Shown here in pieces: positions 8,671 through 52,862 of a stretch of DNA of 64,000 bases; positions within the stretch are counted from its first letter, which is position 1; each line of letters begins with the position of its first letter. The notes under the pieces were generated by a model, which saw only the letters and a list, made by a program, of their open reading frames with translations, was not told the DNA's origin and did no database searches. The DNA is from Minisyncoccota bacterium (GTDB lineage: Bacteria; Patescibacteriota; Minisyncoccia; Phycocordibacterales; UBA2100). Location of the stretch: contig JARLIE010000040.1 of NCBI GenBank assembly GCA_031291875.1, positions 67,011-131,010 on the forward strand. Direction: 5' to 3'. The translations under genes and the position numbers were made by a program.

Positions 8671-9108
8671 ATGACCACCCGAAAAGAACTTATCGATCAG
8701 CTCATCCAAGAGCTCCGGCCCGTTAAGCGTTTTTTGAGTCCGGTTGCTTCACATAAAGGGGATATTACCCCTTCGCAGTGGGCGGTGCTTGGCCTTTTAC
8801 GGCAGGGACCCCTCACGGTCAAAGAAGTAGCCGCGACACTCGGCATTAGTTCGAGCGCCGCTACGCAGCTTGTTGACGCCCTAGTCAAAGCCGGCCATAT
8901 CGACCGCGCGGAAAGTGCAGAGGATCGACGGGCCGTCACGCTTACCATGAGCAAAAAGACAGCCGTTCATGTCGCAAAAATGAGAGAGGAACACGTGTCC
9001 CGCCTCTCCGTCATGTTTGAAATCTTGAGCGACACAGAATTAAAAACCTACGTTGCCCTTACGAAGAAAATCGCTGAAGCGGTAACGAATAAAACTTCTA
9101 CTCTATGA
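8671..9108 (+). CDS. MarR-family transcriptional regulator
   Basis: 145 aa, winged-HTH core LTVKEVAATLGISSSAATQLVDALVKAGHIDRAESAEDRRAV. Confidence 0.75.
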   Translation: MTTRKELIDQLIQELRPVKRFLSPVASHKGDITPSQWAVLGLLRQGPLTVKEVAATLGISSSAATQLVDALVKAGHIDRAESAEDRRAVTLTMSKKTAVHVAKMREEHVSRLSVMFEILSDTELKTYVALTKKIAEAVTNKTSTL

Positions 9109-10757
9109 TAGACACCACCACCAGCACCGGATTGCGCAAATGGATGCCGCTTGTCGTCCTCGCGTTTGCGCTCCTCATCATTATTCTCGACACCACGATC
9201 TTGAACGTGTCTTTGCGCACGATCATCATCGATTTGCATACCAACATCCAAGGCATTCAATGGGTTATCACCGCCTACTCGCTCATGCTTGCCGCATTCA
9301 CGATTACCGGCGGTAGACTCGGCGACCTCTTCGGACGCAAGCGAATGTTTATTCTCGGGGCGTCCATATTCGCGCTGGGATCTTTTATTACCTCGATCAG
9401 CACGTCGGTGGGCATGATGATTCTCGGCGAAGCCATCATTGAAGGTATTGGCGCGGCTCTTATGATACCCGCCACCACATCGCTTCTCGTTTCCAATTAC
9501 CAGGGTCGCGATCGCCAAATTGGCTTTGGCGTTTGGGGCGGTATAGCGGGCGCAGGTGCCGCGCTCGGCCCTGTCGTGGGCGGCTTTCTCACCACGTACT
9601 ATTCGTGGCGCTGGGCGTTTCGTATCAACCTCGTTGTTGCGGCACTGCTCGTGCTCGGCTCGTTCGTCATCAAAGAAGCGCGAGATACGAAAGAGAAACC
9701 GCAGCTCGATTATCTCGGCGTCGTGCTCTCCTCGCTCGCAATGTTCCTCATAGTGTTCGGTGTTATCGAGTCTTCCAGTTACGGCTGGCTCGCAGCAAAG
9801 CAGGTGTTCACGATCGGATCGGTATCGTTCGGCTTTCTCGGCAGCGTCTCTATCGTCGTTCCGAGCATCGCGCTGGGTTTACTTTTGCTCGGAACGTTCG
9901 CACTTTGGCAGGGTCGTCGTGAAAAGAGCGGCAAGACGCCGCTCGTATCGCTCGCACTCTTTAAAAACTCCGTGTTTATTCGAAGCGCTATGATCGTCGC
10001 CATCCTCTCGCTGGGGCAGGCCGGTGTCAGCTTTGCGCTCCCTGTTTTCTTCCAGAGCGTGCTCGGGCTTTCTGCCGTACAAACGGGCGTTGCGATGCTC
10101 CCGATGTCGCTCACACTGCTCGCGGTTTCGTTTTTCACGGCATACCTTTCGAAGTTCGTGACTCCGAAGCGGATTATCCAAGTGGCACTCATGGTAGACG
10201 CGGTGGCCTTTTGGGCCCTTAGTTTTGGCGTCGGGACTGGGAGTGGCGCGTGGGCGCTCGTGCCGGGATTACTACTCTTTGGTCTTGGAATGGGTCTGCT
10301 TATGTCGCAAGCAAGCAACATGACGCTCTCGGCCGTCTCCGTGAAGCAATCTGGAGAAGCCTCGGGTGTGAACAGCACCCTGCGCCAACTCGGCGCATCA
10401 CTCGGCTCCGCGATCATGGGGGCGGTGCTACTCACCACGCTGAGTTCCAATCTTGCAACTGGTGTGCAGACCTCTTCGGTCATTCCTGCTAATGAAAAAC
10501 CTGGCATCATCCAAACCGTGCAAAGCGAGACGTCGAGCATTGAATTCGGAAGCGGATCCGGAGCGGCGACTATCGGCATCCCGCCCTCGCTTGGAAACGA
10601 AATTGCTTCGATTTCCAAAACCGCAACGACAAACGCCAGCCGCGATACGCTTCTCGTTGGCATCATCTTTGCTGTGCTTGCATTCATTCTTTCGCTGCGG
10701 CTCCCGAATCGAAAATCGGTAGTACCGGAACCTGCGATCGCGACAGCGGGACACTAA
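9105..10757 (+). CDS. MFS drug:H+ antiporter, DHA2 (EmrB/QacA) family, 14 TM
   Basis: 550 aa with the GDLFGRKRMFILG motif and 14 hydrophobic segments. 4-nt overlap with marR stop. Confidence 0.8.
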   Translation: MIDTTTSTGLRKWMPLVVLAFALLIIILDTTILNVSLRTIIIDLHTNIQGIQWVITAYSLMLAAFTITGGRLGDLFGRKRMFILGASIFALGSFITSISTSVGMMILGEAIIEGIGAALMIPATTSLLVSNYQGRDRQIGFGVWGGIAGAGAALGPVVGGFLTTYYSWRWAFRINLVVAALLVLGSFVIKEARDTKEKPQLDYLGVVLSSLAMFLIVFGVIESSSYGWLAAKQVFTIGSVSFGFLGSVSIVVPSIALGLLLLGTFALWQGRREKSGKTPLVSLALFKNSVFIRSAMIVAILSLGQAGVSFALPVFFQSVLGLSAVQTGVAMLPMSLTLLAVSFFTAYLSKFVTPKRIIQVALMVDAVAFWALSFGVGTGSGAWALVPGLLLFGLGMGLLMSQASNMTLSAVSVKQSGEASGVNSTLRQLGASLGSAIMGAVLLTTLSSNLATGVQTSSVIPANEKPGIIQTVQSETSSIEFGSGSGAATIGIPPSLGNEIASISKTATTNASRDTLLVGIIFAVLAFILSLRLPNRKSVVPEPAIATAGH

Positions 10758-10811: not shown

Positions 10812-12176
10812 ATGAGCCCGCTCATTCTCTCGCGAATACAATTCGGCGATACGGCCGCATTCCATATTCTCTGGCCGGTTATGTCGATCGGCATCGCGCT
10901 CTATATGGTTGTCATGGAGTCCATGTGGCTCTATACCAAAGAAGAATCGTACTACCGTCAGTTGCGTTTTTGGACAAAAATCTTTGTGCTCACGTTCGCC
11001 ATTGGCACCGCGAGCGGCCTGCCACTTTCGCTCGAATTCGGAACCAATTGGTCGCAGTTCGCGCAGGCGGCCGGTGATTTTATGGGTAATATTCTTGGGT
11101 TTGAAACTACGATCGCTTTCGCGCTTGAATCGGCATTTCTCGCGATACTTATATTCGGCTGGAAGCGGGTTCATCCGCTCATGCACCTTTTTTCGACCTT
11201 TATGGTCTTTATCGGTGCCTCGATCTCAGCCTTTTGGATCATGGTCGCCAACTCCTGGATGCAGGTGCCCGAGGGAATAACCGTTCAAAACGGACTCATC
11301 GTCGTTACGAACTACTCGCAGGCTATTTTTAATCCCGACTCCGTTGTTTCGTTTATGCACATGATGGGCGCGTGCGTCGAATCCTCGCTCTTCCTTATCG
11401 GCGGCATCGCGGCATGGCAACTACTAACAACTGAAGCGGGTCCGGTTCGAGATTTCTTTCGACAAACACTCGTGTATTGTCTTGCGATCGCGCTCTTTGT
11501 CGCGCCGCTGCAGGTAGTGATTGGTGACATGAGCGGACTCGTCGTCGCTCAGTATCAGCCGGAGAAGTTGGCGGCGCTTGAATTACAGTGGGACACGAAC
11601 GCTCCGGGTGAGGGAGCGGCATGGGATGTGGTCGCATGGCCGAATTCGACCAACAATGGTAACGCATTCGCCGTTTCGATCCCCAATGGATTGAGTCTCC
11701 TCACGACGCATTCGATGGAGGGGACGGTGCAAGGATTGAACGATTTTCAGGCAAGCGATCGACCAAGCGAAATGGAAGCCGTCATTACGTTTTATGGTTT
11801 TCGCTTGATGATGGTGATTGGTTTTTTGCTTGTCGCGCTCGCGCTCTGGAGCATCGTTTTGTGGTGGAAAGGGGGATTGTCGTCCGAGCGTATTGCACGT
11901 CATCGTGCTTGGCTTAGATGCTGGGTCGCGTCGATTCCGCTTGGTTTTATCGCGACGGAAGCTGGTTGGATGGTGCGCGAGATCGGTAGGCAACCCTGGA
12001 CCGTATATCACTTGATGCGTACCGCAGACAGCGTCTCAATCGGACTCACCAGTTACGAGGTAGGCACGACGACGCTCGTTGTTACCGCCGCTTACCTGGT
12101 ATTTGCTGGCGTATTCATCTATCTAAGTTATCGAATCGTTCGATCCGGTCCGGATCTCGTATCGCCGCTGCCATGA
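10812..12176 (+). CDS. cydA: cytochrome bd ubiquinol oxidase subunit I
   Basis: N-terminus LSRIQFGDTAAFHILWPVMSIGIALYM and Q-loop GWMVREIGRQPW match CydA. Confidence 0.85.
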   Translation: MSPLILSRIQFGDTAAFHILWPVMSIGIALYMVVMESMWLYTKEESYYRQLRFWTKIFVLTFAIGTASGLPLSLEFGTNWSQFAQAAGDFMGNILGFETTIAFALESAFLAILIFGWKRVHPLMHLFSTFMVFIGASISAFWIMVANSWMQVPEGITVQNGLIVVTNYSQAIFNPDSVVSFMHMMGACVESSLFLIGGIAAWQLLTTEAGPVRDFFRQTLVYCLAIALFVAPLQVVIGDMSGLVVAQYQPEKLAALELQWDTNAPGEGAAWDVVAWPNSTNNGNAFAVSIPNGLSLLTTHSMEGTVQGLNDFQASDRPSEMEAVITFYGFRLMMVIGFLLVALALWSIVLWWKGGLSSERIARHRAWLRCWVASIPLGFIATEAGWMVREIGRQPWTVYHLMRTADSVSIGLTSYEVGTTTLVVTAAYLVFAGVFIYLSYRIVRSGPDLVSPLP

Positions 12177-13165
12177 CCCCGACGCTACTCGCCCAAATTT
12201 GGTTCGCGATCATCTGCCTCGAAGCGGCCTTGTACGTGGTACTGGATGGCGGCAATCTAGGAATCGGCATGCTTTCGCTCGTGCCGCAGCCCGAACACGA
12301 GCGAGAAACGATCATGCGAGCGTTCGGGCCGATGTGGGATGCCAACGAGACATGGCTGCTTATCGCGGCCGCGACGACCTACGGCGCATTTCCTATGGTG
12401 TACAGCATCGCGCTCAATGCGCTCTATATTCCTGCATTCGTTTTCGGCGTCGGATTGGTACTGCGTGTTGCTTCGTACGAGTTTTATTGCAGCAGCGGAC
12501 AGCGGCTTTGGCGATTTCTCTTTGGGGTGGCGAGCCTCCTCGCTGTCGTGGGGCAGGGGTTTCTTCTGGGTGGTTTCATCAGCGGTATCTCGATTGCGAA
12601 CGGTCACTTTGCGGGTGGACCTTTAGACTGGGCGACGCCGGTTACCGCACTCTTTACGCTAGGCATCGTATTTGGCTACCTCGTGCTCGGTTATACGCGC
12701 CTTATCAACTTCGCGTCATACGAACTTTCGCCGAACGCGCTGCTCCAACTCTCGAGTGCGACCGTCATCGCCGCGTGCGCACTTATCGCCGGCGCGCTCC
12801 TTCTTCCGCATGCCAATTATCTGTATTTCGACCGCTGGACGGTACTACCAAGCGCATACATTCTCTATGTCATAGCCGCATGTATTGCGATTGTTTGCGC
12901 GGCGTTTGCGTACAACGTACTCACGAAGACCCACGTGCGAGAGTTGTATTACCTCAGTATGGCGATTTTCGCGCTCGGGTTTGTCGGCATGATCGTCGGT
13001 GTCTATCCGTATATTTTGCCGCCGAACGTCACTATCTTCGAGGCGGCCTCATCACCGGCAACGCAAGTGTTCATGCTTTGGGGGATCGGTCCGATTTTGC
13101 CGATAGTTCTCGTCTACAACTATTACATTCGCCGAATTTTCCGGCAGGACGGACCCGAATATTGA
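12173..13165 (+). CDS. cydB: cytochrome bd ubiquinol oxidase subunit II
   Basis: 330-aa polytopic protein. 4-nt overlap with cydA. N-terminus ...VVLDGGNLGIGML is typical of CydB. Confidence 0.8.
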   Translation: MTPTLLAQIWFAIICLEAALYVVLDGGNLGIGMLSLVPQPEHERETIMRAFGPMWDANETWLLIAAATTYGAFPMVYSIALNALYIPAFVFGVGLVLRVASYEFYCSSGQRLWRFLFGVASLLAVVGQGFLLGGFISGISIANGHFAGGPLDWATPVTALFTLGIVFGYLVLGYTRLINFASYELSPNALLQLSSATVIAACALIAGALLLPHANYLYFDRWTVLPSAYILYVIAACIAIVCAAFAYNVLTKTHVRELYYLSMAIFALGFVGMIVGVYPYILPPNVTIFEAASSPATQVFMLWGIGPILPIVLVYNYYIRRIFRQDGPEY

Positions 13166-13185
13166 AATCCCTCAGGAGGTACCTA

Positions 13186-13605
13186 CTACTGCGCGATTTT
13201 TTGCAGCAAAGTATTGAGCGTTGCTTTCTCGTGCTCGGAAAGGTTTGAAAGTTGGAGTGCGTTTGAACTCTCGATGCGCGTGACAATCTCTTCTCGCAAA
13301 GCGAGGCCCTTTTCTGTCAGCATAATCGTTTTGACGCGACGATCCGTCGGATTTTCCGCGCGCTCAAGGTAGGAGGCTCCGACGAGCTTGTCGACGATAC
13401 CGGTTACATTCGAAGGGTCGCAGCTTAAGATTGTCGAAATCGAGTGCATGGGAACCTGCACGTGATCTTCCAAGAAAAGCACCGTGTAGAGCTGCATGAC
13501 GGAGAGGTCGTACTCTTCGGCGATACGAATAAGTTCTTTTTTGGCCTGCAGAGAAATCTTCAGGAGAAGCCAGCTTGTGCTTTCTTTGACGGCAGGGGAG
13601 TTCAT
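13186..13605 (-). CDS. MarR-family transcriptional regulator
   Basis: 139 aa, wHTH with DRR motif (ERAENPTDRRVKTIMLTEKG). Divergent from the MFS gene. Confidence 0.7.
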   Translation of the reverse strand: MNSPAVKESTSWLLLKISLQAKKELIRIAEEYDLSVMQLYTVLFLEDHVQVPMHSISTILSCDPSNVTGIVDKLVGASYLERAENPTDRRVKTIMLTEKGLALREEIVTRIESSNALQLSNLSEHEKATLNTLLQKIAQ

Positions 13606-13691
13606 ACAAGCACTATACGACTTTGATTGACCTAGTCAATACATGGGAACTTCACTTGTTGAATAGTAAAATATTTGATATACTCAAGTAT

Positions 13692-15140
13692 ATGGCTACT
13701 CACACCAAACAAGGGCGTTCGCCCTGGATCGTCTTTTTACTCGTAACCGTGGCTCAGTTCATGGTTGTTTTGGACATTTCAATCACGAATGTTGCGTTGC
13801 CAGTCATCAAATCTCAGCTCAATTTTACCGATAGCTCGCTGCAATGGGTGATCACGGCTTATGCGCTTGCCTTCGGCGGATTCCTCCTTCTAGGTGGTCG
13901 CGCAGCCGACCTTTACGGACGACGAACCGTCCTCCTGACCGGTCTCATCGCGTTCAGCTCGACCTCGTTCCTGATCGGCATGTCCTCGTCGGCAGCTGAG
14001 TTGATAGTTTTGCGAGCAATTCAAGGTCTTGCAGCCGCGTTTATGTCTCCCTCCGCACTCTCAATCGTGCTTACGACCTTCGGCGAAGGACCGGATCGCA
14101 ACCGCGCGCTCGCGTATTGGACTCTTGTCGCGACAGGGGGTGCAGCTGTCGGATTACTACTCGGCGGCTTTCTCACTGAATTCGTCAACTGGCGTTGGAA
14201 CTTTTTTATCAACGTTCCGATCGGTATCGTCGATGCAATCTTAATCTTGCGTATGGTTCCGAAACACGAAAAAGAAGAGCGCAATAAAAGTCTCGATTTG
14301 CCGGGAGCAACACTCGTCACTTCTAGCTTGATCGCGTTCGTCTTCGGATTCAGCCAGGGTCCGGCATGGGGATGGCTTTCGTTCCCGGTGCTCGGCGTCC
14401 TGGGGCTCGCCGTCTTGCTGCTCGTGGGATTCATCTACAACGAGTCTCGAAGCTCGCACCCGCTCATGCCGCTTTCGATCTTTAAGATTCGAAACGTAAG
14501 CGGCGCCAATCTCATGATGGCTCCGATTTACGCGGGTATGTTGGGAACCTTCTTCCTAACGACGCTCTACTTGCAAAACGTGCTCGGCTACTCACCGGCG
14601 ATCGCAGGCTTGAGTTACTTGCCGTTCCCGATCATCCTCGCAGTCATGTCCACCCGTATTCCGAAGCTCGTCGAGCGCTATGGCTTCAAGCGATTCCTCA
14701 TTATCGGTCCGTTACTTGCTGCGGCAGGAATGCTCTTGATGGGGTTCCTTCCGGTCCATGGCGACTATTTCCTCAACCTGCTTCCAACCTTCATTCTCGT
14801 ACCGCTTGGAATGGGAGTGACCTTCATGCCCGTCATCGCGGCAGCGACCTCTGGCGTGCCGGCACACGAAGCGGGGCTTGCCTCTGGTCTCATTACGACC
14901 TCTCAGCAAATGGGCGGCGCGCTCGGACTCTCGATTCTCTCTGGGGTTGCGACTTCGGTCGCGGCTGCGAGCACCGGTTTGGATCCGGCAACCGCGCTCG
15001 TACATGGATTCAATGCGGCATTCTTCACCGCTGCAGGATTTATGTTCTTCGCGATGCTGCTCGGTGCGCTGGTCATCAAACAACCAAAGGGCGCGCAAGG
15101 ACGCGTTTCGGCTCAGCAAATCGCCGAAGCGATGGTGTAA
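13692..15140 (+). CDS. MFS transporter, DHA2 family
   Basis: ATG at 13692 (MATHTKQGRSPWIVF...) preferred over 13623. 14 TM. Motif ADLYGRRTVLLTG. Confidence 0.75.
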   Translation: MATHTKQGRSPWIVFLLVTVAQFMVVLDISITNVALPVIKSQLNFTDSSLQWVITAYALAFGGFLLLGGRAADLYGRRTVLLTGLIAFSSTSFLIGMSSSAAELIVLRAIQGLAAAFMSPSALSIVLTTFGEGPDRNRALAYWTLVATGGAAVGLLLGGFLTEFVNWRWNFFINVPIGIVDAILILRMVPKHEKEERNKSLDLPGATLVTSSLIAFVFGFSQGPAWGWLSFPVLGVLGLAVLLLVGFIYNESRSSHPLMPLSIFKIRNVSGANLMMAPIYAGMLGTFFLTTLYLQNVLGYSPAIAGLSYLPFPIILAVMSTRIPKLVERYGFKRFLIIGPLLAAAGMLLMGFLPVHGDYFLNLLPTFILVPLGMGVTFMPVIAAATSGVPAHEAGLASGLITTSQQMGGALGLSILSGVATSVAAASTGLDPATALVHGFNAAFFTAAGFMFFAMLLGALVIKQPKGAQGRVSAQQIAEAMV

Positions 15141-15678: not shown

Positions 15679-16587
15679 ATGCGTCGCTCGACGATCGTTC
15701 TCTTGAGTATTTTTGTGCTCGCGCTTGCAGCAGCGACGTTCCTCTATGTCCGAAGTGCAACCATAGCCGTGCTCGATCCGGCTGGTCCCGTCGCCCTCGC
15801 CGAGAAAAACATCATCATTACGGCGACGTTTTTGTGTGCGCTGGTCGTTGTGCCGGTTTTCTTTTTGTTGTTTTTCTTTGCATGGAAGTATCGGGCCGAC
15901 AGTCCGCAGGCACAGCAATCCCACAAGCCGGATTGGGACCATGACAGCATTCTCGCGGAAGTGATTTGGTGGCTTGTTCCGGCCGTAATTATCGCTATCC
16001 TCGGCGTCATCGCGTGGAATAGTTCGCACGCGCTCGACCCGTATCGACCGCTCGAATCCGACGTTGCCACAATACCGATCGACGTCGTCGCGCTCGACTG
16101 GAAATGGCTCTTTATCTATCCGCAACAGGGAATCGCGAGCGTAAATCTTGTCGAATTTCCCGCAGGAACGCCGGTGCATTTCTATCTGACGGCAGACGCA
16201 CCGATGAACACGTTTTGGATACCGCAGCTTGCGGGGCAGGTTATGGTTATGCCCGGCATGACAACGCAGCTTAACCTGGCAGCGAGCAAAACGGGGGATT
16301 TCAACGGCTTCTCCGGAAACATCAGCGGAAAAGGATTTTCGGGCATGGCGTTTACCGCTCGTGCGGTAGATCAGCAAACGTTCAATACTTGGATCGCTTC
16401 AATAAAAGCTTCTTCGACACCGCTTACGCAAGAAGCCTACATAATGTTGGCGGCGCCAAGTGAATATAATCCGGTCGCGTATTACGACCTCGCGGAACCA
16501 AATCTCTTTGGTGCGATAGAATCCACCTATATGAATCCCGGATCGGCGATGCCGCAGGTGTCGCAAGGTATGACCGTGACACCATGA
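15679..16587 (+). CDS. cyoA: cytochrome o ubiquinol oxidase subunit II
   Basis: Two N-terminal TM helices plus a cupredoxin-like domain. FWIPQLAGQVMVMPGMTTQLNL...GFSG matches CyoA (quinol oxidase, no CuA ligands). Confidence 0.8.
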   Translation: MRRSTIVLLSIFVLALAAATFLYVRSATIAVLDPAGPVALAEKNIIITATFLCALVVVPVFFLLFFFAWKYRADSPQAQQSHKPDWDHDSILAEVIWWLVPAVIIAILGVIAWNSSHALDPYRPLESDVATIPIDVVALDWKWLFIYPQQGIASVNLVEFPAGTPVHFYLTADAPMNTFWIPQLAGQVMVMPGMTTQLNLAASKTGDFNGFSGNISGKGFSGMAFTARAVDQQTFNTWIASIKASSTPLTQEAYIMLAAPSEYNPVAYYDLAEPNLFGAIESTYMNPGSAMPQVSQGMTVTP

Positions 16588-18563
16588 ACTGGCAAACCTT
16601 GATCTTCGGGAATCTCTCGTGGTCGGTACTGCCCGAAAACGCGATCGCATGGTTCGGTGCGCTTACCGTTATCGCCGGTGTGCTCGCAGTGGTCGGCGTC
16701 GTTACGTATCTGGGCCGCTGGCAGTGGCTTTGGGACGAATGGTTCACATCGCTCGATCCGAAGAAAATCGGCGTTATGTACATCGTTGTCGCTCTCGTTA
16801 TGCTGGTGCGCGGCGGCTCCGACGCGCTCCTCATGCGCGCGCAACAGGCAACCTCGGTCGGCGATTCGTACGGCATTTTGACCTCGACGCACTTTCAAGA
16901 AATTTTCTCGGCGCATGGCTCGATCATGATCTTTTTCCTCGCGATGGGGTTTATGTTCGGACTTATCAACTTGATTGTCCCGCTGCAGATCGGATCGCGG
17001 GACGTCGCGTTCCCGTTTTTGAATTCGCTTAGCTTTTGGCTCTTCTTTGCCGGCGCGGCCCTGATCAACTGCTCACTCATTTTTGGCGATTTTTCTACGG
17101 CAGGTTGGCTCGCGTACCCGCCGCTTTCTGAATTGCGATATTCGCCGACTAGCGGCGTCGATTATTGGATCTGGTCGCTACAGATTGGCGGCCTAGGATC
17201 GCTGCTTTCGGGCGTGAACTTTTTTGCGACCATCGTGAAAATGCGTACGAAGGGGATGAACTGGATGCGTTTGCCGATGTTCAGCTGGACCGTGCTCGGC
17301 TCCATGACCCTCGTTATTTTCGCGTTCCCGATTCTCACCGTCACGCTCGCGCTGCTCTACCTCGATCGCACCGCCGGCATGCACTTTTTCACAGCAGAGC
17401 TCGGCGGCAATATGATGATGTACGTAAACTTGATCTGGGCGTGGGGACATCCGGAGGTGTATATTCTGATTCTTCCGGCCTTTGGCGTCTTTTCGGAAGT
17501 GGTGCCGGTTTTTTCGGGGAAGAAACTCGCCGGGTATACCTCGATGGTATTCTCTGTGTGGGCGATCGTGGTGCTCTCATTTATCGTATGGCTGCACCAC
17601 TTTTTCACGATGGGCGCGGGAGCGGACGTCAATGCGTTCTTCGGTATTATGACGGCCGTCATCGCCGTTCCCACCGGTGTCAAAATTTTCAACTGGCTTT
17701 TCACGATGTACCGCGGTCGCATTCGATTCGAGAGTCCGATGCTGTGGTTTATGGGATTCGTCGTGCTCTTTACGCTCGGCGGGGTCGCGGGTGTCGTGAT
17801 GGCGGAGCCACCGGCCGACTATCAGCTGCACAACTCTCTCTTTCTCGTCGCGCACTTCCACACGATGATCGTCTCCGGCGTGCTGTTCGGGTACTTTGCA
17901 GGGCTCACGTTCTGGTTTCCAAAAATATTCGGATTCAAAATGAACGAAAAGTGGGGGATTCGTGCGTTTTGGTTCTGGCTGATCGGCTTTATTCTCGCGT
18001 TCGGGCCGCTCTACTTGCTTGGCTTTGAGGGTGCGACCAGACGGCTCGACCATTATTCTTCTTCGCTCGGATGGCAGCCCCTTTTTATCGTCGCCGGCAT
18101 CGGTGCGATTTCTATAGCCATCGGTTTTTCATGCCAGGTGGCGCAGCTTGTCGCGACGTTTCGCGACTACAAGCGTAATCGCGTCGGCAACGATCCGTGG
18201 GACGGTCGCACGCTCGAGTGGTCGGTCGCTTCTCCAGCGCCCTCGTACAACTTCGCCGCCCTCCCGATTGTGCACTCGCGCGATGAGTTCTGGGAAGAAA
18301 AACACGGCGCGAGCACCCAGGAGCAAAAATTTGAGGATTTTTCTATGCCAAAAAATACCGGTGCCGCGGTTATTGTCAGTAGTTTTGTGTTCTTGCTGGG
18401 GTTTGGCGCCGTATGGCATATCTGGTGGCTCGTTATCGCCGCGCTGCTTGGTGCAACGATCGCGGTGCTCGTCCATGTTTTCAACGAAGACTCCGAATAC
18501 GCAGTGAGCGGCGCGCAGCTTGCACACCGCGAAGCGGGACTGCAGTATCCGACCAGCCTATGA
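16584..18563 (+). CDS. cyoB: cytochrome o ubiquinol oxidase subunit I (heme-copper oxidase)
   Basis: 659 aa. WAWGHPEVYILILPAFGVFSEVV, HHFFTMG and other heme-copper subunit I signatures. Confidence 0.9.
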   Translation: MNWQTLIFGNLSWSVLPENAIAWFGALTVIAGVLAVVGVVTYLGRWQWLWDEWFTSLDPKKIGVMYIVVALVMLVRGGSDALLMRAQQATSVGDSYGILTSTHFQEIFSAHGSIMIFFLAMGFMFGLINLIVPLQIGSRDVAFPFLNSLSFWLFFAGAALINCSLIFGDFSTAGWLAYPPLSELRYSPTSGVDYWIWSLQIGGLGSLLSGVNFFATIVKMRTKGMNWMRLPMFSWTVLGSMTLVIFAFPILTVTLALLYLDRTAGMHFFTAELGGNMMMYVNLIWAWGHPEVYILILPAFGVFSEVVPVFSGKKLAGYTSMVFSVWAIVVLSFIVWLHHFFTMGAGADVNAFFGIMTAVIAVPTGVKIFNWLFTMYRGRIRFESPMLWFMGFVVLFTLGGVAGVVMAEPPADYQLHNSLFLVAHFHTMIVSGVLFGYFAGLTFWFPKIFGFKMNEKWGIRAFWFWLIGFILAFGPLYLLGFEGATRRLDHYSSSLGWQPLFIVAGIGAISIAIGFSCQVAQLVATFRDYKRNRVGNDPWDGRTLEWSVASPAPSYNFAALPIVHSRDEFWEEKHGASTQEQKFEDFSMPKNTGAAVIVSSFVFLLGFGAVWHIWWLVIAALLGATIAVLVHVFNEDSEYAVSGAQLAHREAGLQYPTSL

Positions 18564-19165
18564 CCGACGAATTCGACCGCAGCGGCATACTTTCCGTCGA
18601 CGAAAAGTCCAAGGACTCGACGATCGTTTTCGGATTTTGGATGTACCTAATGACCGATCTCGTACTCTTCGCGAGCCTCTTTGTCGTTTTCGTCGTACTG
18701 CGTGGGCCCGAGTATGGCGGGGCATCGATCAAAAATACTTTCGATTTGCAGTATGTTTTTATCGAAACGATCGCGCTCTTGGTAAGCAGCTTCACGTGCG
18801 GACTCGCGCTTTTGTTCGCGCGCGAAGGGAATGTTCGGGGCACGGTATCATGGCTCTTAGCCACGTTCGTGCTTGGCGCCGCGTTCGTCGCGATGGAGGT
18901 TTCTGAATTTTCTCGTCTTCTTGCGCAAGGACTCGCACCCGCTCGCGACGGATTTCTCTCCGGTTATTTCACGCTCGTCGGAACGCACGGTGCGCACGTA
19001 ACCGTCGGGCTCCTCTGGCTCCTCGCGATGGTCGTGGCGATTGCCGGCAGGGGACTCTCCCGCGGGAATATGCGCAAGCTCGCGCTCTTTGCGATGTTTT
19101 GGCACTTCCTCGATGTGATCTGGATTTTTATCTTTACCATTGTGTACCTGATGGGCGTGCTATGA
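18560..19165 (+). CDS. cyoC: cytochrome o ubiquinol oxidase subunit III
   Basis: ATG at 18560 overlaps cyoB stop (ATGA). MTDEFDRSG...FGFWMYLMTDLVLFASLF and 5 TM are typical of CyoC. Confidence 0.8.
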   Translation: MTDEFDRSGILSVDEKSKDSTIVFGFWMYLMTDLVLFASLFVVFVVLRGPEYGGASIKNTFDLQYVFIETIALLVSSFTCGLALLFAREGNVRGTVSWLLATFVLGAAFVAMEVSEFSRLLAQGLAPARDGFLSGYFTLVGTHGAHVTVGLLWLLAMVVAIAGRGLSRGNMRKLALFAMFWHFLDVIWIFIFTIVYLMGVL

Positions 19166-19542
19166 AAAACTATTTCGAAGAAATCGGTGCTTGGCCTCGC
19201 TCACACAACATCGCCGGTTCGTACGCCGTCGGCTTCGCGCTCTCGCTCATGCTGACATTCGCGGCGTATGAGTTCGTCGTGCAAAACGCGCTGCCCCATG
19301 GGTGGCTCGTAGCAGTAGTCGTGGGTGCCGCAATTTTGCAGTTCATCGTGCAGGTATATTGTTTTCTCCACATAGGAACCGACTCGAGTACGCGCGAGCG
19401 ACTTTTCGCGCTTTCGTTTGCAGGACTCTTGATGCTGATTCTCGTCTCCGGATCACTCTGGATCATGTTCGATCTCAATGGTCGTATGAGGCCGGATAGC
19501 ACGCAGATGGTGCAATATATGAACGACCAAGGTGGTTTCTAA
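19162..19542 (+). CDS. cyoD: cytochrome o ubiquinol oxidase subunit IV
   Basis: 126 aa, 3 TM. ATGA overlap with cyoC. Position in operon. Confidence 0.65.
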   Translation: MKNYFEEIGAWPRSHNIAGSYAVGFALSLMLTFAAYEFVVQNALPHGWLVAVVVGAAILQFIVQVYCFLHIGTDSSTRERLFALSFAGLLMLILVSGSLWIMFDLNGRMRPDSTQMVQYMNDQGGF

Positions 19543-19545
19543 CCT

Positions 19546-20412
19546 ATGATCAAAGCCTACTATCGTCTCTCGAAGCCTGGCATCGTATACGGGAATTTGC
19601 TCACGACGATCGCCGCATTTTTGTACGCTTCGCGTTGGGGACTGGTTTCATGGGATGCGTGGATCGTGTTTCTTGCAACCGTCTTTGGACTCGGGCTTGT
19701 TATTGCCTCCGCCTGCGTGTTCAATAATTTTATCGATCGGGACATTGATCGAAAAATGAAACGCACGAAGAATCGCGCACTCGCAACCGGCGAGCTATCC
19801 AACGAGAACGCGCTTCTGTTTGCCACAATCATCGGTCTTATCGGCTTAACTCTCCTCATCGCCTTCGTGAACCTGCTGAGTGCGTTCATCGCGTTCGTCG
19901 GTTTCGCGGTCTATGTCTTCGCCTACACGCTTCTGAAACGCACCACGGCGTGGGCGACGGAAATTGGAAGTATCTCCGGAGCCGTTCCGATTCTTGTCGG
20001 TTACACGGCCGTGACGAATCGTTTCGATCTGGTCGCACTCATGCTCTTCGCGATCATGATTTTCTGGCAGATGCCGCATTTTTTTGCGATCGCACTCTTT
20101 CGTTTCGACGACTATGCTGCGGCGAATATTCCGACGCTGCCGCTCAAAAAAGGCGCACGTGTTACTAATATTCGCGCGCTCATCTATATCGTGCTCTTTG
20201 CAATTGGCGTGCTCGCGCTCACGGTACTTGGTTACGCCGGGTACTGGTATCTCGTGGTAGTGGAGATCGCGGCAGTCGTATGGTTTTGGCGAGGCACGCA
20301 AGGATTCGCTGCGGTGCATACTGAAGCCTGGGCCCGTAAATTTTTCTTCACCTCACTTGTCGTGCTTCTGGTTTTTGCAGCGATGCTTTCAATCGCGAAT
20401 CTCGTATTCTAG
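19546..20412 (+). CDS. cyoE: protoheme IX farnesyltransferase (heme O synthase)
   Basis: UbiA-family motifs NNFIDRDIDRKMKRTKNRALATGEL. 288 aa polytopic. Confidence 0.85.
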   Translation: MIKAYYRLSKPGIVYGNLLTTIAAFLYASRWGLVSWDAWIVFLATVFGLGLVIASACVFNNFIDRDIDRKMKRTKNRALATGELSNENALLFATIIGLIGLTLLIAFVNLLSAFIAFVGFAVYVFAYTLLKRTTAWATEIGSISGAVPILVGYTAVTNRFDLVALMLFAIMIFWQMPHFFAIALFRFDDYAAANIPTLPLKKGARVTNIRALIYIVLFAIGVLALTVLGYAGYWYLVVVEIAAVVWFWRGTQGFAAVHTEAWARKFFFTSLVVLLVFAAMLSIANLVF

Positions 20413-20461: not shown

Positions 20462-21505
20462 TCAGGAAGCTTCAAGTAATCGCTCGATCGGAATGTTCGA
20501 GGAAAAGAAGTCCCGATGTTCGTTCAAGGTGCTGCGGTACAAGTCCCCGTAGGGCCGGTAGTCGTCCGGACAGAGGAACACGAGGTTGATTCTCTCGTCC
20601 GGACCGCGGAATTGCTCGAGCGTTTCCGAGAGTGCATGCTGGTGCAGAAAACGCAGGGCAACCGAGTAGGCGAGACCGGAAGTCGGGCCGCCCGGCGTCC
20701 ATTCGACCTCCGGGAACATCGCATAGCTAGCCAGAAACGCTTGGTAGCGCGTCGCCGTCATTTGATGCTCGAAGGTATCCGGCGTGGCGAAGCGCACGTC
20801 GCGCATCACTCGAACTTTGTCGCGAGCTCCGGGGATCTCGTGACCGTTTTCGCACAACGCGAGCACGAGTTTGGTTTTCAGCTCATGCTCCTCGATATAG
20901 CGCTGCAGCCCGGTGATCGTGCCCAGCGTGCCGCCGGCGACGACGACGAGATCGATTCTTCCATTGTTCTCGTCGAAGAGCTGCGGGGCAAGATACTTCA
21001 TCTGCGCGATGGGGTTTGCTTGCTCCGAATACTGGTCGACATTGCACCAGCCGGGTTGTTCTCCCTGTTCGCGTGCGTACTGCACGGTGCTGGAAGTGAC
21101 CTGCCGGGTATTGATCGGGTCGCCGAGAGCCGTGATGACGCCGACCTTGCTGCTGGGCGTGTCGTTCTGCATCACGAGTTCGCAATACAGTCCGAGCGCT
21201 TTGCACAGCTGTGCGATGCCGAGGCCGGTATTGCCGCTCGTGGCGGCAACGATCTTGGTCGATTTGTGAATCTTCTCGGCCCGAATCAGGGCGCTGATCA
21301 GCTCGTACGCCACAGGAGCTTTCGAGTTGAAAGTATCCCCGTACAGGAATCCCGGCCGGATCGTCACGTTCGCTTTCGCAAAGAAAGCCGAAGCGCTCTC
21401 GATTTTTGACCCCAGGCGCACGAGGGTGCGCCGAGCCGGATTGAAGCGTTCGAGGGCAGGGTGGAAGGTAAGATCGTCCATGTTGGACCTCTCTTGGTTG
21501 CACAC
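20462..21505 (-). CDS. pyridoxal-phosphate-dependent enzyme, Trp-synthase-beta superfamily (cysteine synthase-like)
   Basis: 347 aa. PLP-lysine region and glycine loop (TSGNTGLGIAQLCKALGL, GGTLGTITG). Confidence 0.65.
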   Translation of the reverse strand: MCNQERSNMDDLTFHPALERFNPARRTLVRLGSKIESASAFFAKANVTIRPGFLYGDTFNSKAPVAYELISALIRAEKIHKSTKIVAATSGNTGLGIAQLCKALGLYCELVMQNDTPSSKVGVITALGDPINTRQVTSSTVQYAREQGEQPGWCNVDQYSEQANPIAQMKYLAPQLFDENNGRIDLVVVAGGTLGTITGLQRYIEEHELKTKLVLALCENGHEIPGARDKVRVMRDVRFATPDTFEHQMTATRYQAFLASYAMFPEVEWTPGGPTSGLAYSVALRFLHQHALSETLEQFRGPDERINLVFLCPDDYRPYGDLYRSTLNEHRDFFSSNIPIERLLEAS

Positions 21506-21585
21506 GATGTGACCGCGCTTGCGGTCCTGCGGGGATACTACTCTCCTGGGTCGGCTTTCGCAAAGCCTGTGCTACGATGCCCGAA

Positions 21586-21924
21586 ATGAGATACAAGGGC
21601 ATTGTTCAAAAAGGCAGAGAGTACGGCAAAACGCTCGGTTTTCCGACGCTTAACATAAAAATCGACGGCGATGCCGTCTCGGGCATTTTTGCGGCCAATG
21701 TAACGATTGAGGCGAAAACGTATCCGGCCGCCGCCTACACCGACCTTTCACGCGGTGTTCTTGAGGCATATCTTCTGGATTACTCGGGAGATTTGTACGG
21801 CAAGGAAATTGAAATCGAGCTCTTAAAAAAGATTCGCGAAGACGAAACATTTGCCGACGAGGCCTCGCTCAAGACGGCGATCGCCGCTGATGTTGCAAAG
21901 ATCCGAGAATACTTTACTTTGTAA
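21586..21924 (+). CDS. riboflavin kinase (stand-alone RibF C-terminal-type domain)
   Basis: GKTLGFPTLNI (PTAN motif) and E..LLDYSGDLYG..IEIELLKKIREDETF. Second ATG (21586) chosen because the -10-like TGCTACGAT overlaps the first ATG at 21577. Confidence 0.7.
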   Translation: MRYKGIVQKGREYGKTLGFPTLNIKIDGDAVSGIFAANVTIEAKTYPAAAYTDLSRGVLEAYLLDYSGDLYGKEIEIELLKKIREDETFADEASLKTAIAADVAKIREYFTL

Positions 21925-21927
21925 ACC

Positions 21928-22512
21928 ATGTTCGCAGGCATCGTGCAGGCTAGCGCGCGCGTCAAAGCGCTCGAAGAAGAGAAGAGAATACTTCGCGCAC
22001 GAATCGAAGCACCTCGAAGCTGGAAACTCGAACTCGGCGCGAGTGTGAATATCGACGGTATCTGTTCGACCGTGGTGAAAAAGGGAAGGGGGTATTTCGA
22101 CGTCGAATATATGGCGCAAACACTTTCCAAAACCACCGCGGCTTCGTTTACGAAAGGCCGATTGGTAAACCTCGAGCGCTCCCTCAAGTACGGCCAGTCA
22201 ATCGATGGTCATCCGGTGCAAGGACACGTCGACTGCACAGCGCCGATTACGGAGATCGCAAGGAAAGGAGCTTCTCGGGAGTTGACCATACGACCAAACG
22301 CAAAGCTCGCGCGGCAGGCGGCGCTGCACGGTTCCATCGCGATCAACGGCGTTTCGCTTACGATCGCGAAGAAACACGGCCCGAACATTACCGTCGCGCT
22401 CATTCCATATACGCTCAAACACACGAACCTCGGCACTCTCAAAGCAGGCGATGTGGTCAATGTCGAATTTGACCACTCGCGGGCCTACCTGGATAAGGTG
22501 CGCGGAAGGTGA
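21928..22512 (+). CDS. ribE: riboflavin synthase alpha chain
   Basis: MFAGIVQ... N-terminus and duplicated lumazine-binding halves (GASVNIDGICSTVV / GSIAINGVSLTI). Confidence 0.8.
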   Translation: MFAGIVQASARVKALEEEKRILRARIEAPRSWKLELGASVNIDGICSTVVKKGRGYFDVEYMAQTLSKTTAASFTKGRLVNLERSLKYGQSIDGHPVQGHVDCTAPITEIARKGASRELTIRPNAKLARQAALHGSIAINGVSLTIAKKHGPNITVALIPYTLKHTNLGTLKAGDVVNVEFDHSRAYLDKVRGR

Positions 22513-22524
22513 TACCGTTCCGAT

Positions 22525-22986
22525 ATGCAAACAGAAGAATTTTTGAAAAAAATAAAAGCTCGCGACGCTTCGAAGCTCAAAGTCTCCATTGTCGCCTCCA
22601 GGTTCCACTCGGACATTACCGACCCAATGGTTGAAGGTGCGCTCGGGACGCTGAAAGAGTGGAAGGTTAAGGATAAAAACATCACGGTTCGCCGCGTATA
22701 CGGCTCGTTCGACCTTTCGTTCGCCGCTGCTCGCGCGATAAAAAAAGACAAGCCGCATGCAGTCATTGCGATCGGCTGCATCGTGAAGGGAGAAACAAGG
22801 CACGATGAATATATCGCGAACGCGGTATTCAAAGGCCTGACGGATCTCTCGATACAACACGTCATTCCTGTTTCGCTCGGTGTACTCACCGTCAACGATC
22901 TGGCACAAGCGAAAGTCCGCTCGAGCGGAGCGACGAACCACGGCGAAAAAGCCGCAGTCGCAGCGCTCGAAGCCGCGCTTTCGTAG
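22525..22986 (+). CDS. ribH: 6,7-dimethyl-8-ribityllumazine synthase
   Basis: KVSIVASRFHSDIT...AIGCIVKGETRHDEYIANAV...SLGVLTV match RibH. Confidence 0.85.
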   Translation: MQTEEFLKKIKARDASKLKVSIVASRFHSDITDPMVEGALGTLKEWKVKDKNITVRRVYGSFDLSFAAARAIKKDKPHAVIAIGCIVKGETRHDEYIANAVFKGLTDLSIQHVIPVSLGVLTVNDLAQAKVRSSGATNHGEKAAVAALEAALS

Positions 22987-22988
22987 CT

Positions 22989-23963
22989 ATGCGGTCTACC
23001 TCGTTTGCGGTACTCGGTCCCTTGATCGTGTTCGTCGCGGCGATGCTGTGGGCCTCCGACGCTCCGTTTCGTCTGCATCTCACGCTGGCGCTCTCGTCGA
23101 ACTTCATCGTGTTCGGCGAGCATTTTTTTGATTGTCTCGTAGCGCTTCCGATTCTGTTTTTCAACTGGAACGATATAACAAAGCTCTCATGGCGCGAGTG
23201 GCTTGCGGTCGGCTTTATCGCAATCGGCGGCTCGGCACTCGCGTCGATTCTCTTTACGGAATCGTTCCACTACGTGAATCCATCGGTCGCTATCGTGCTC
23301 CAGAAAGTGCAGCCGCTCATCGCGATTGCACTCGCATGGGCAGTCCTTGGAGAAAAACTCCACCCGCGCTTTTGGCTTTGGGGTAGTATCGCGCTCGTTG
23401 GCGCGTATCTCGTGAGTTTCCCGAACCTGGTTCCCCAAACGTATGCGGGAGAAACGTTCAACCCCAACCTTCTCGGCGCGCTCTATGCGCTTTCTGCGGC
23501 CGCACTCTGGGGCGCATCGACTGTTTTCGGCAAGTACGTGTTGCAAAAGGCAGCGTTCCAAACGATGACTGGACTGCGTTTCGTTGTTGCCTTCGTCTTT
23601 CTTGGAGTTCTCAACGGCGTACAGGGGACCTTTCCCGATTTTGCGACACTAACGTCCACCGACTATTTCTTTATCGCTATCATCGCCCTGTGTTCGGGAG
23701 TTTTTTCCCTCTATTTATATTACTTCGGGCTCAAATACACCCGCGCCTCGATCGCTACTATCGCGGAGCTTGGCTTCCCGCTCGCTGCTGTATTCGTCAA
23801 CGCCTACTTCATACCGGGCAATTGGGCGCCGGGCTCGACGCTCGGCTTGTATGCGGGCCAGTGGGCAGGGACGTTGATTCTACTGCTCTCCATGTTCATG
23901 CTTTCTCGAGTTAATCGAGAGGAATCCTCCCTGGCCGAAGGCAGGTCCCTCCAAACCATATGA
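22989..23963 (+). CDS. DMT/EamA-superfamily transporter (10 TM), candidate riboflavin-related transporter
   Basis: 324 aa, 10 hydrophobic helices with two-repeat EamA-like organisation. Embedded between ribH and ribL. Confidence 0.5.
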
Positions 23964-24382
23964 CTCGGATCATGGTGTTCGGCACGTTCGATATGGTTCA
24001 TCCGGGCCATGAAAATCTTTTCCAACAGGCAAGAGCGCTTGCACAGGAGCCGCACTTGATTGTCTCGATCGCGACCGACAAAAACGTCGAACGCATAAAA
24101 GGCAAAAAGCCGCGGCATTCGCAAACCGAGCGTCGAGCGCTCGTGGCCGCGAACCCGCTGGTCGACGAGGCGGTGATAGGAGACGAAGCGGGGTACGTTG
24201 AGCATATTCGCGCGCTACGGCCGGACATAATCGCGCTTGGTTACGATCAGACCGGGGAATACGTGGATACACTGCAGGAAGATTTGACGAAGGCAGGACT
24301 TAGCGTCAATGTTATGAGATTGCAGGCATTTGAACCGGAGCGGTTCAAGACCTCCAAACTTCATGACGAACGAAACCGATGA
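23960..24382 (+). CDS. archaeal-type FAD synthetase (RibL-like cytidylyltransferase-fold FMN adenylyltransferase)
   Basis: [11 protein letters not shown] nucleotidyltransferase motif. [23 protein letters not shown] and [13 protein letters not shown] are collinear with RibL as I recall it. Confidence 0.7.
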
Positions 24383-24923
24383 GATGATCGCTGCACGCGT
24401 GCAAAACGGAGACGTTGAAAGCTTCAGTGCGCTCGTGGAGCGCTATGAGGACAAGCTTACGCGCTACGCACGCAAATTCTTGCGCGATCCGGACGACGCC
24501 AAAGACATCATCCAGGAGGTGTTCATTAAGGCATTCGAAAATATCCAGAGTTTCGACGCGACGCGACGTTTTTCCCCATGGATCTACCGCATCGCGCACA
24601 ATGAATTCGTAAATGCCATCAAAAAGCGAGCCAGGGGTCCCGTACTCGGCATAGATTTCGATGTTGTATTTCCGCATCTTGCGGCGACCGACACCGCCGA
24701 CGATACGGCACTCGAGCGCGACACGAAGGAATTGCTCGAGCAGTGCCTCGACGAACTAGAACCGAAATATCGGGAGCCGCTGGTTTTGTATTATTACGAA
24801 GGGGTAAGTTACAAAGATATGGCTGATATTTTGCGTATACCGATGTCGACGGTTGGCGTGCGACTCGCAAGAGGGAAGGCGCAGCTACGGAAAGTTGCAG
24901 CAAAGAAAAACCTATATGATTGA
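24363..24923 (+). CDS. ECF-subfamily RNA polymerase sigma factor
   Basis: Sigma70 region 2 ([14 protein letters not shown]...[19 protein letters not shown]) and region 4 ([37 protein letters not shown]). Overlaps ribL-like gene by 20 nt. Confidence 0.8.
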
Positions 24924-51710: not shown

Positions 51711-52862
51711 ATGGCTCGCGTAAAGATAAGCGAATATCGAGCCAAAAAGATTTTACTTGGCGATTCGTACAAGGGTATTTTGGTTCGCACTGAAGAAAAG
51801 CAAAAGATGCCCAAGGGCGGGACCTGGGTGGCCAAAGTCGACCAGGGCGTCAAAAAGCGCTTTAAACAAGGACTTGTTGCCGTCGGTGTAACGCCGGCGC
51901 AGGCGGCGAAGAAGTTTGCGCTCTGGCAAAAGGAAGGCTTCTCGCAGTTCCTGCTCGAACCGCTCGTCCCGCACAAATCGGAAGAAGAACAGTACCTTTC
52001 GCTCGACCGTGTTCGCGAGGGGATTCGCGTGCTGCATGCAGGCGAGGGCGGAATCGACATCGAAACACATCCGGAGAAAGTCGGCACGTATACCATTGCG
52101 AACGATGAAGATCTCGCAATAGTTTCGAGTGCGACAAATATCCCGCAAACGTTTTTACGACACGTTCTGGAAGTATTCGATAAAAACTTTTTCGCCTTTC
52201 TTGAAATCAATCCGCTGGTCATCCAAGGCGGTAAGGCGCACTTGCTCGATGCCGCGTGCCTCGTTGACAGTGCTGGAGAATTTTTCGTTACGTCATGGGG
52301 GCAAGACGATATCGTGAAGTCGAGAGCCGCGCATGAGTCGGAAGCTCGCGTTGAAGAATTACAAAACACGACGCCGGCCTCACTCAAGCTCTCCGTCATC
52401 AACCCGAACGGTTCGCTGTTTTTCCTGCTCTCGGGTGGCGGCGGCTCGATCGTCATTGCCGACGAAGCGGAGCTTGAAGGCGCAGGGAAGCTCATCGGCA
52501 ATTACGGCGAATACAGCGGCGGTCCGACGCGGCAAGAGACCTATTTATATGCAAAAGAAGTGATTGCGCTCATGCTCAAGTCGAACGCGAAGAAGAAGGC
52601 ACTGGTGATCGCAGGGGGCGTGGCGAACTTTACCGACGTTCAAAAAACATTCGCCGGCATCATCGACGCGCTTTCTGAGTTTGCGCCCAAGCTACGCGAA
52701 CAAAAGGTGAAAGTATTCGTCCGTCGAGGAGGTCCGAATGAGAAAGCGGGACTCGAACTCATGTGTGCATTTTTGGACCGCGAAAAGCTGTTCGGCTCGA
52801 TTCACGGATCAGATGATGTGATTACAAGTGCGGTTGCCGATGCTATCAAATTTGCTGTATGA
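51711..52862 (+). CDS. aclB: ATP-citrate lyase, ATP-grasp (beta) subunit
   Basis: Collinear with the N-terminus of eukaryotic ACLY/AclB: ISEYRAKKIL, FLLEPLVPH, FLEINPLV, ASLKLSVINPNGSLFFLLSGGGGSIV, GNYGEYSGGPTRQETYLYAK, VFVRRGGPN. Confidence 0.85.
   Translation: MARVKISEYRAKKILLGDSYKGILVRTEEKQKMPKGGTWVAKVDQGVKKRFKQGLVAVGVTPAQAAKKFALWQKEGFSQFLLEPLVPHKSEEEQYLSLDRVREGIRVLHAGEGGIDIETHPEKVGTYTIANDEDLAIVSSATNIPQTFLRHVLEVFDKNFFAFLEINPLVIQGGKAHLLDAACLVDSAGEFFVTSWGQDDIVKSRAAHESEARVEELQNTTPASLKLSVINPNGSLFFLLSGGGGSIVIADEAELEGAGKLIGNYGEYSGGPTRQETYLYAKEVIALMLKSNAKKKALVIAGGVANFTDVQKTFAGIIDALSEFAPKLREQKVKVFVRRGGPNEKAGLELMCAFLDREKLFGSIHGSDDVITSAVADAIKFAV

Follow-up and report, generated by a model that had tools for sequence, protein, structure and literature searches.

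A predicted flavin-cofactor operon joining a bacterial-type riboflavin kinase to an archaeal RibL-type FAD synthase in a Candidate Phyla Radiation bacterium

In the bacterial bifunctional enzyme RibF, an N-terminal FMN adenylyltransferase domain (FMNAT; PF06574) is followed by a C-terminal riboflavin kinase (RFK) module, and the one protein carries both reactions that lead from riboflavin by way of flavin mononucleotide (FMN) to flavin adenine dinucleotide (FAD). Orthologues of the archaeal proteins RibK and RibL have been stated to be present in Archaea and absent from Bacteria (PMC5397151), and the air sensitivity of archaeal RibL has been attributed to two cysteines (PMC11423594). EhFADS of Entamoeba histolytica is of the RibL type and cysteine-free, active and ATP-specific (PMC11423594), and for riboflavin uptake, ImpX of Fusobacterium nucleatum has been shown to transport the vitamin (PMC4418817). 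For the Candidate Phyla Radiation (CPR), a survey of Parcubacteria found the FAD-dependent enzymes MurB and TrxB, and no ribF, ribK/ribL or riboflavin transporter (PMC4508563). Here we describe a five-gene locus in a 64,000-nucleotide stretch of the Minisyncoccota contig JARLIE010000040.1 (hereafter the window, whose first letter is position 1), in which a stand-alone bacterial-type riboflavin kinase, ribE, ribH, a permease gene of the drug/metabolite transporter (DMT) superfamily and a gene for a RibL-type protein of 140 aa follow one another on the + strand.

The five open reading frames (ORFs), at window positions 21577–24382, are tightly packed, with spacers of 3, 12 and 2 nt between successive ORFs and a 4-nt overlap between the DMT gene and the 140-aa gene. 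Their coordinates and domain calls bear out the positions and strand given in the initial annotation of this stretch, and the protein motifs it quoted (23 and 13 letters) were all found in the ORFs. The genes are as follows.

21586..21924, + strand: riboflavin kinase (RFK), stand-alone, ATP-type, 112 aa (115 aa from start 21577)
21928..22512, + strand: ribE, riboflavin synthase, 194 aa; NF006767, TIGR00187, two Lum_binding repeats
22525..22986, + strand: ribH, 6,7-dimethyl-8-ribityllumazine synthase, 153 aa; TIGR00114, Pfam DMRL_synthase
22989..23963, + strand: DMT/EamA permease of the ImpX family, 324 aa, 10 transmembrane segments, two EamA repeats; predicted riboflavin importer
23960..24382, + strand: putative RibL-type FMN adenylyltransferase / FAD synthase, 140 aa, no cysteine; CTP_transf_like

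We consider it probable that this operon serves flavin-cofactor supply in a bacterium of the Paceibacteria class of the CPR (Kaiserbacteria-like). In the route that we propose, riboflavin would enter through the ImpX-family permease and/or be made by the last two biosynthetic enzymes, with RibH condensing 5-amino-6-ribitylaminouracil (5-A-RU) and 3,4-dihydroxy-2-butanone 4-phosphate (DHBP) to dimethylribityllumazine, and RibE dismutating the latter to riboflavin. The minimal stand-alone kinase, of the RibF C-terminal type, would then convert riboflavin and ATP to FMN, and the RibL-type nucleotidyltransferase would adenylylate FMN to FAD, in place of the N-terminal FMNAT of bacterial RibF.

The assignment of the last gene is central to this proposal. 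Over 130 residues the 140-aa protein is 38% identical (94 bits, 2e-30) to the characterized RibL of Methanocaldococcus jannaschii (MjRibL; MJ1179, Q58579 / WP_010870692, sequence matched exactly), and it matches PF01467 (CTP_transf_like) at 4.3e-14. The two proteins share the motifs HPGH (residues 14–17 of the window protein), KGxKP and PDIIxLGxDQ, and in both a C-terminal K(T/S)S motif falls where TagD has its ISTT motif. Its best sequence match in the PDB is the archaeal structure 3glv (3e-18), which is 47% identical to MjRibL, and TagD structures score about 35–40 bits. A hidden Markov model (HMM) built from archaeal sequences alone gave 149.7 bits for the window protein, 75.5 for Bacillus subtilis TagD, 60 for human ECT and 13 for the N-terminal domain of Escherichia coli RibF. 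In a neighbor-joining bootstrap analysis the CPR and archaeal ingroup was split from the TagD outgroup in 100/100 replicates; the Paceibacteria-type clade was monophyletic in 96/100 and lay among archaeal sequences, its sister being a Woesearchaeota sequence in 68/100, and the Gracilibacteria sequence branched apart. The protein is of the same size as MjRibL, with the same HxGH nucleotidyltransferase fold and likewise a riboflavin kinase gene as partner, but its host is bacterial, its C-terminal tail is shorter, and the partner kinase is of the bacterial ATP type (PF01687) and not of the archaeal CTP type (PF01982). From homology, synteny and the in-frame kinase fusions described below, we infer that it is an FMN adenylyltransferase.

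The protein could instead be another small nucleotidyltransferase (TagD-like, HldC/HldE-II or an archaeal-type phosphopantetheine adenylyltransferase, PPAT) that sits in the cluster by coincidence. The NCBIfam search might seem to favor this, as no curated model reached its cut-off, the best match was rfaE_dom_II (HldE domain II; 63.5 bits against a cut-off of 181.5), and TagD and then PPAT models followed. The fold is also generic: Foldseek placed 3glv first (TM 0.78/0.88, using an AlphaFold2 model with pLDDT 87) with HldC and TagD just below. However, all of these family matches lie far under their cut-offs, and MjRibL itself, used as a control, gives the same pattern, which indicates that NCBIfam has no RibL model and that scores below threshold do not speak against RibL. 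The protein is far more similar to MjRibL and to the archaeal RibL set, and in four genomes the RibL reading frame is continuous with that of a riboflavin kinase. We therefore rejected the identities TagD (TIGR01518, 42.4 bits against a cut-off of 165.4, and the outgroup in the tree), HldC and PPAT, and we regard a different small nucleotidyltransferase as highly improbable. The clustering with TagD that had been named beforehand as the outcome contrary to a RibL assignment did not occur, whether judged by HMM score, PDB score or tree.

The initial annotation had also described RibL as restricted to archaea, a view that agrees with the literature but not with the data. Some 950 clusters of CPR homologues exist, which the NCBI and JGI pipelines name FAD synthase, and a protein identical to that of the window already carries this annotation. 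The RibL-type family is thus not limited to archaea.

The first gene of the operon is predicted to encode the complementary activity, and here the description as a stand-alone kinase of bacterial type held. The protein matches the Flavokinase family (PF01687; 1.3e-25, 90 bits) across profile positions 5–124 of 124, and the RibF models of NCBIfam are matched at positions ~190–308 only, their C-terminal third, with scores far under the cut-offs. Its closest PDB sequence is the C-terminal domain of Thermotoga maritima RibF (9e-13). In an alignment of 53 CPR homologues the PTxN motif (GFPTLN) and the catalytic Glu (LEAY) are kept and the NxGxRPT middle loop is shortened. Translation probably starts at the second ATG, at 21586, in agreement with the N-termini of the homologues. 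Compared with RibF, the window kinase is homologous to the C-terminal module, and the locus as a whole would share both reactions, but the N-terminal FMNAT is absent. A gene for a PALP-family enzyme (20462–21505) lies upstream on the opposite strand, so that no N-terminal FMNAT domain can be hidden before the kinase. With an ORF of 112–115 aa, no PF06574 and a divergent gene upstream, the identity of a bifunctional RibF was rejected.

A canonical bifunctional ribF might nevertheless lie elsewhere in the genome, of which 64 kb was examined, and the kinase and RibL would then form a redundant or specialised second route. We find this improbable. The RibF N-terminal domain was not found by tblastn in the window or in the 74 related loci described below, surveys of Parcubacteria found no ribF (PMC4508563), and the pair is strongly retained and fused across lineages, which would not be expected of a redundant function in such reduced genomes.

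To see how widely the arrangement recurs, a scan of one genome per species with the RibL query was used. It returned 74 loci (cited below by L numbers, with positions within each locus), of which 65 are from the CPR, labelled Paceibacterota, Kaiserbacteria, Parcubacteria, Nomurabacteria, some 'Saccharibacteria' and one Gracilibacteria, and nine are archaeal, from DPANN, Methanomethylicia, Methanosarcinales and Heimdallarchaeota. We counted as informative those CPR loci, 52 in all, whose upstream sequence spans 2.5 kb or more. The kinase lies on the same strand and at most 3.5 kb upstream of RibL in 40 of these. What stands between the two genes varies: nothing (10 loci), the DMT gene only (14), ribE-ribH only (10), or ribE-ribH together with the DMT gene (9). 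Dozens of species-level genomes show the arrangement, some of them with the genes fused, so it is not a chance one. We suggest that the module has kinase and RibL as its core, and that ribE-ribH and impX would be accessory cassettes gained and lost between the core genes.

The fusions are of two kinds. In three loci (L020 936–1685, L023 2312–3061 and L026 9593–10402) a single ORF of 249–269 aa carries both Pfam domains, RFK and then RibL, and in the Gracilibacteria locus (L075 9659–10387, read in genetic code 25) a 242-aa RFK::RibL fusion follows ribE and ribH. Relative to bacterial RibF the order of the two activities is reversed in these proteins, with the kinase N-terminal and RibL C-terminal. 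In two independent samples (L076 6001–7347 and L077 5503–6849) it is the DMT protein that runs in frame into a complete RibL domain, giving a protein (P0217) of 448 aa.

The archaeal loci show the same partnership with another kinase. A ribK/rbkR gene (PF01982 with a winged helix-turn-helix, wHTH) adjoins ribL in three of the nine (L068, L073 and L074), and in L068 (9998–12013), a Nanobdellota metagenome-assembled genome (MAG), ribL, rbkR (wHTH and CTP-dependent riboflavin kinase) and impX form one operon. This DPANN operon has three roles in common with the window, namely FAD synthase, riboflavin kinase and ImpX-type permease, but its kinase is the archaeal wHTH and CTP-dependent RbkR, ribE and ribH are lacking, and the gene order is different. 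The pairing of kinase and RibL is thus conserved across domains with the kinase family swapped, and the reading of the window locus as a mosaic of a bacterial-type kinase and an archaeal-type RibL is upheld by synteny, by the fusions and by these archaeal loci. In the two Heimdallarchaeota MAGs (L073 9126–10429 and L074 3930–5233) RibL is 211 aa long with an N-terminal extension of ~75 aa, and an RbkR-like gene precedes it.

As to origin, DPANN-like archaea, in which ribL adjoins the archaeal CTP-dependent kinase, are the most likely source of the RibL gene, and possibly an impX-like gene came with it, although the direction of transfer is our inference; in the CPR the bacterial kinase would fill the slot of the archaeal one.

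The permease was described in the initial annotation as resembling the RibN/ImpX importers, and this suggestion was borne out by homology along the full length of the protein. The protein has two EamA repeats (Pfam) and ten hydrophobic segments. A tblastn search of a plasmid collection of 7.3 Gb matched six records, two of them full-length. One of these, an ORF on a chromosome-sized record of Fusobacterium vincentii, is 34% identical along 305 aa (pairwise 6e-43). It has an FMN riboswitch (RF00050, 118 bits) in front of it and is bracketed by the cloning primers published for F. nucleatum impX, with three mismatches each where none would be expected by chance; from the riboswitch and the primers we identify this ORF as impX. 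The impX of the Nanobdellota operon is 53% identical to Fusobacterium ImpX (4e-107), and the window protein is ~33% identical to it by tblastn. The window DMT and Fusobacterium ImpX are both DMT/EamA proteins of ~310–325 aa linked to flavin genes. They differ in that the window gene has no FMN riboswitch, its flavin link being the operon context, in that it stands in an operon whereas ImpX is monocistronic, and in that it is nearer to a DMT of Thermomicrobium roseum than to ImpX. This T. roseum protein (43% identity) is the closest relative outside the CPR found in the plasmid-collection search, and its gene lies in a cofD-cofC-DMT-nitroreductase operon (L083 3419–6632, on megaplasmid NC_011961.1), where it may be an FO/deazaflavin transporter linked to F420 synthesis.

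It is thus conceivable that the window DMT does not import riboflavin but works as an exporter, like many EamA proteins, or carries another compound such as deazaflavin. The F420 setting of the T. roseum relative would agree with this, as would the ~20 informative CPR loci that have RFK and RibL without a DMT. No curated NCBIfam model names the protein, databases say only 'DMT/EamA family transporter', and a PDB sequence search gave no match. Against it stand the full-length homology to riboswitch-controlled Fusobacterium impX, a proven riboflavin transporter, the DPANN ribL-rbkR-impX operon, the DMT::RibL fusion, and the genomes in which the gene, with ribE/ribH absent, stands between kinase and RibL. 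Weighing these, we hold such another role unlikely, and the most fitting reading is a riboflavin importer of the ImpX family, its substrate and direction of transport being predicted from homology and context. It had been proposed that the DMT takes up either an upstream intermediate or riboflavin itself. As genomes that have no ribE/ribH also carry the gene between kinase and RibL (a DMT lies between the two core genes in 23 of the 52 informative relatives), riboflavin is the most economical substrate, and we favor this half of the proposal over the other.

ribE and ribH look intact, with scores above cut-off and the key residues of RibH apparently kept. RibE scores 191.9 bits against NF006767 (cut-off 155) and 158.4 against TIGR00187 (cut-off 156.6), with two Lum_binding repeats in Pfam, and RibH scores 116.6 bits against TIGR00114 (cut-off 84.6) and matches lumazine synthases in the PDB (best 6e-26). 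RibH appears to keep the residues matching Phe22, His88 and Arg127, including the catalytic His and the phosphate-binding Arg; we take these positions to follow the B. subtilis/Aquifex numbering of lumazine synthase. In two relatives (L039 9477–9974 and L045 9481–10035, both on the − strand) ribE is followed by a divergent lumazine-synthase-like gene that the window RibH query had missed.

The cluster had been described as having ribE and ribH without ribA, ribB or ribD, which was borne out. With E. coli RibA, RibB, RibD and RibF as queries (verified exact), tblastn at E<=1e-4 found no ribA, ribB, ribD or RibF N-terminal domain in the 64-kb window or in the 74 loci, the relatives being covered by 10-kb flanks, and none in the Gracilibacteria locus when read in code 25. 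Nor are ribA, ribB and ribD hidden among the genes that relatives carry in the interval from kinase to RibL, which belong to other families only. Such inserted genes (L009 and L019 9249–10004; L017 2513–3292; L029 766–1551; L034 7806–8591; L033 8783–9562; and those of L015, L016 and L025) include a TrmB-family regulator directly upstream of ribL, a conserved S-adenosylmethionine (SAM)-dependent methyltransferase, a member of the inositol monophosphatase (IMPase) family, and a response regulator with a histidine kinase.

This raises the possibility of a truncated pathway, in which ribA, ribB and ribD are truly lost and RibH and RibE use intermediates from a host or the environment (5-A-RU with a C4 donor, or dimethylribityllumazine), possibly taken up through the DMT. 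The negative searches would fit it, as would the recurrence of the ribE-ribH pair beside RFK/RibL in both Paceibacteria and Gracilibacteria, the equivalog-level scores of two genes that look maintained, and the report that Parcubacteria have no riboflavin synthesis genes (PMC4508563). On the other hand, ribA, ribB and ribD may be unlinked and lie beyond the 10-kb flanks, and complete riboflavin, FMN and FAD pathways have been reported in Gracilibacteria (PMC9166423), the supplement of that study being ambiguous on riboflavin. Furthermore, RibH apparently keeps the Arg that binds the phosphate of DHBP, which is an unlikely substrate for import, and the DMT is homologous to a riboflavin importer and is found also without ribE/ribH. 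We therefore see the truncated pathway as a possible explanation, but the less likely one.

The initial annotation described archaeal RibL as air-sensitive. This probably does not hold for the window protein. It has no cysteine at all: C126 of MjRibL aligns to another residue and the region of C143 is absent, these two cysteines being a feature of the methanogen enzymes that is linked to metal binding as well as to air sensitivity. EhFADS, which is active without cysteines, shows that the two cysteines do not define the RibL family. It resembles the window protein, by description only, in being of the RibL type outside Archaea, in lacking both cysteines and in working beside a separate riboflavin kinase, but its host is eukaryotic and it has neither an operon nor a linked transporter or ribE/ribH. 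The window also encodes two terminal oxidases, which fits a cysteine-free RibL: a cytochrome bd (10812–13248), with subunit I identified at 475 bits and subunit II as probable, and a heme-copper quinol oxidase operon (15679–20412) with COX_ARM subunit II, COX1, COX3 and COX4_pro followed by a UbiA/CyoE-type prenyltransferase. Air sensitivity of the window RibL thus seems unlikely, and a cysteine-free RibL from an oxidase-bearing organism could suit structural work better than the air-sensitive methanogen protein. Two pairs of a MarR-family regulator and a major facilitator superfamily (MFS) transporter (8671–10757 and 13186–15140) flank the cytochrome bd genes.

Several points weigh against our proposal of a flavin-supply operon or narrow its support. 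Gene content, homologies, recurrent linkage and the fusions were observed, and all functions rest on homology and genomic context. The archaeal sequences used for the HMM and the tree were gathered by their similarity to the window query, and the tree was built from a subsample, with simple distances over 137 columns. In nine CPR loci RibL has no kinase inside 10 kb. Much of the synteny comes from fairly close relatives (55–80% identity) that share a downstream sigma-RuvX-tRNA_bind-PilM block, and the conserved order is therefore partly inherited and not independently selected; the independent support is given by the fusions, the Gracilibacteria locus and the archaeal loci. The F420 operon around the closest non-CPR relative of the DMT in the plasmid-collection search means that the substrates of this subfamily may extend beyond riboflavin, and the source of the RibH substrates is not explained at the locus, as ribA, ribB and ribD were not found nearby.

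The surroundings of the operon add two features.

21506..21585, + strand: upstream intergenic region, ~71–80 nt, divergent from the PALP gene; presumed promoter
24363..24923, + strand: extracytoplasmic function (ECF) sigma factor gene; Sigma70_r2/r4; start from the public gene call

An Rfam search found neither an FMN riboswitch (RF00050) nor any other upstream element in the window or in seven related loci, and the upstream gap is too short to hold this element of ~140 nt. A scan of the locus for consensus promoters and terminators gave nothing informative. The ECF sigma gene overlaps the 3′-end of ribL by ~20 nt and is the same neighbor that follows ribL in relatives; it is probably co-transcribed with the operon and shows no sign of a flavin role. 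Where the window has the divergent PALP gene, many relatives have a tRNA gene, whose end lies only a few bases from the start codon of the kinase (for example in L005, L008, L015, L018, L022, L030, L037 and L039), and in these the flavin module may be transcribed from, or inserted beside, the tRNA gene. In L081 (4291–5448) a gene for an FAD_binding_3 (PF01494) monooxygenase, likely an FAD client adjoining the FAD operon, lies directly upstream of the kinase. Farther along the window, an ATP-citrate-lyase-like gene pair (51711–54643; Citrate_bind with ATP-grasp, then CoA-ligase with a citrate synthase C-terminal domain) is unusual for a reduced genome.

Each gene of the operon comes from a known family, and the last is already called FAD synthase by annotation pipelines. 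The novelty lies in how the genes are combined, in the lineage that carries them, in the RFK::RibL and DMT::RibL fusions and in the exchange of kinase families across domains. We found no paper that describes RibL in bacteria or this system in the CPR, and RibL and the CPR came together only in the negative statement of the Parcubacteria survey (PMC4508563). As a broader and tentative proposal, to which we give less than even weight, FAD in at least two CPR classes (Paceibacteria and Gracilibacteria) may be the product of a RibL that tolerates oxygen and was taken over from DPANN-like archaea, an ImpX-type permease perhaps coming along with it. A bacterial kinase would have become the new partner of this RibL, some lineages joining the two in a reversed RFK::RibL protein; lineages with only ribH and ribE would scavenge 5-A-RU or lumazine from a host or neighbor.

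The supply of FMN and FAD in ultra-small CPR bacteria has been an explicit puzzle, to which the locus and its relatives bring a candidate importer, a candidate kinase and a candidate FAD synthase. The RFK::RibL fusions give a bifunctional FAD synthetase a new order of domains, the ImpX family is extended to the CPR and to DPANN, and the locus adds one more case of probable gene exchange between these two ultra-small radiations. In conclusion, the operon suggests how CPR bacteria with tiny genomes supply their flavin enzymes.

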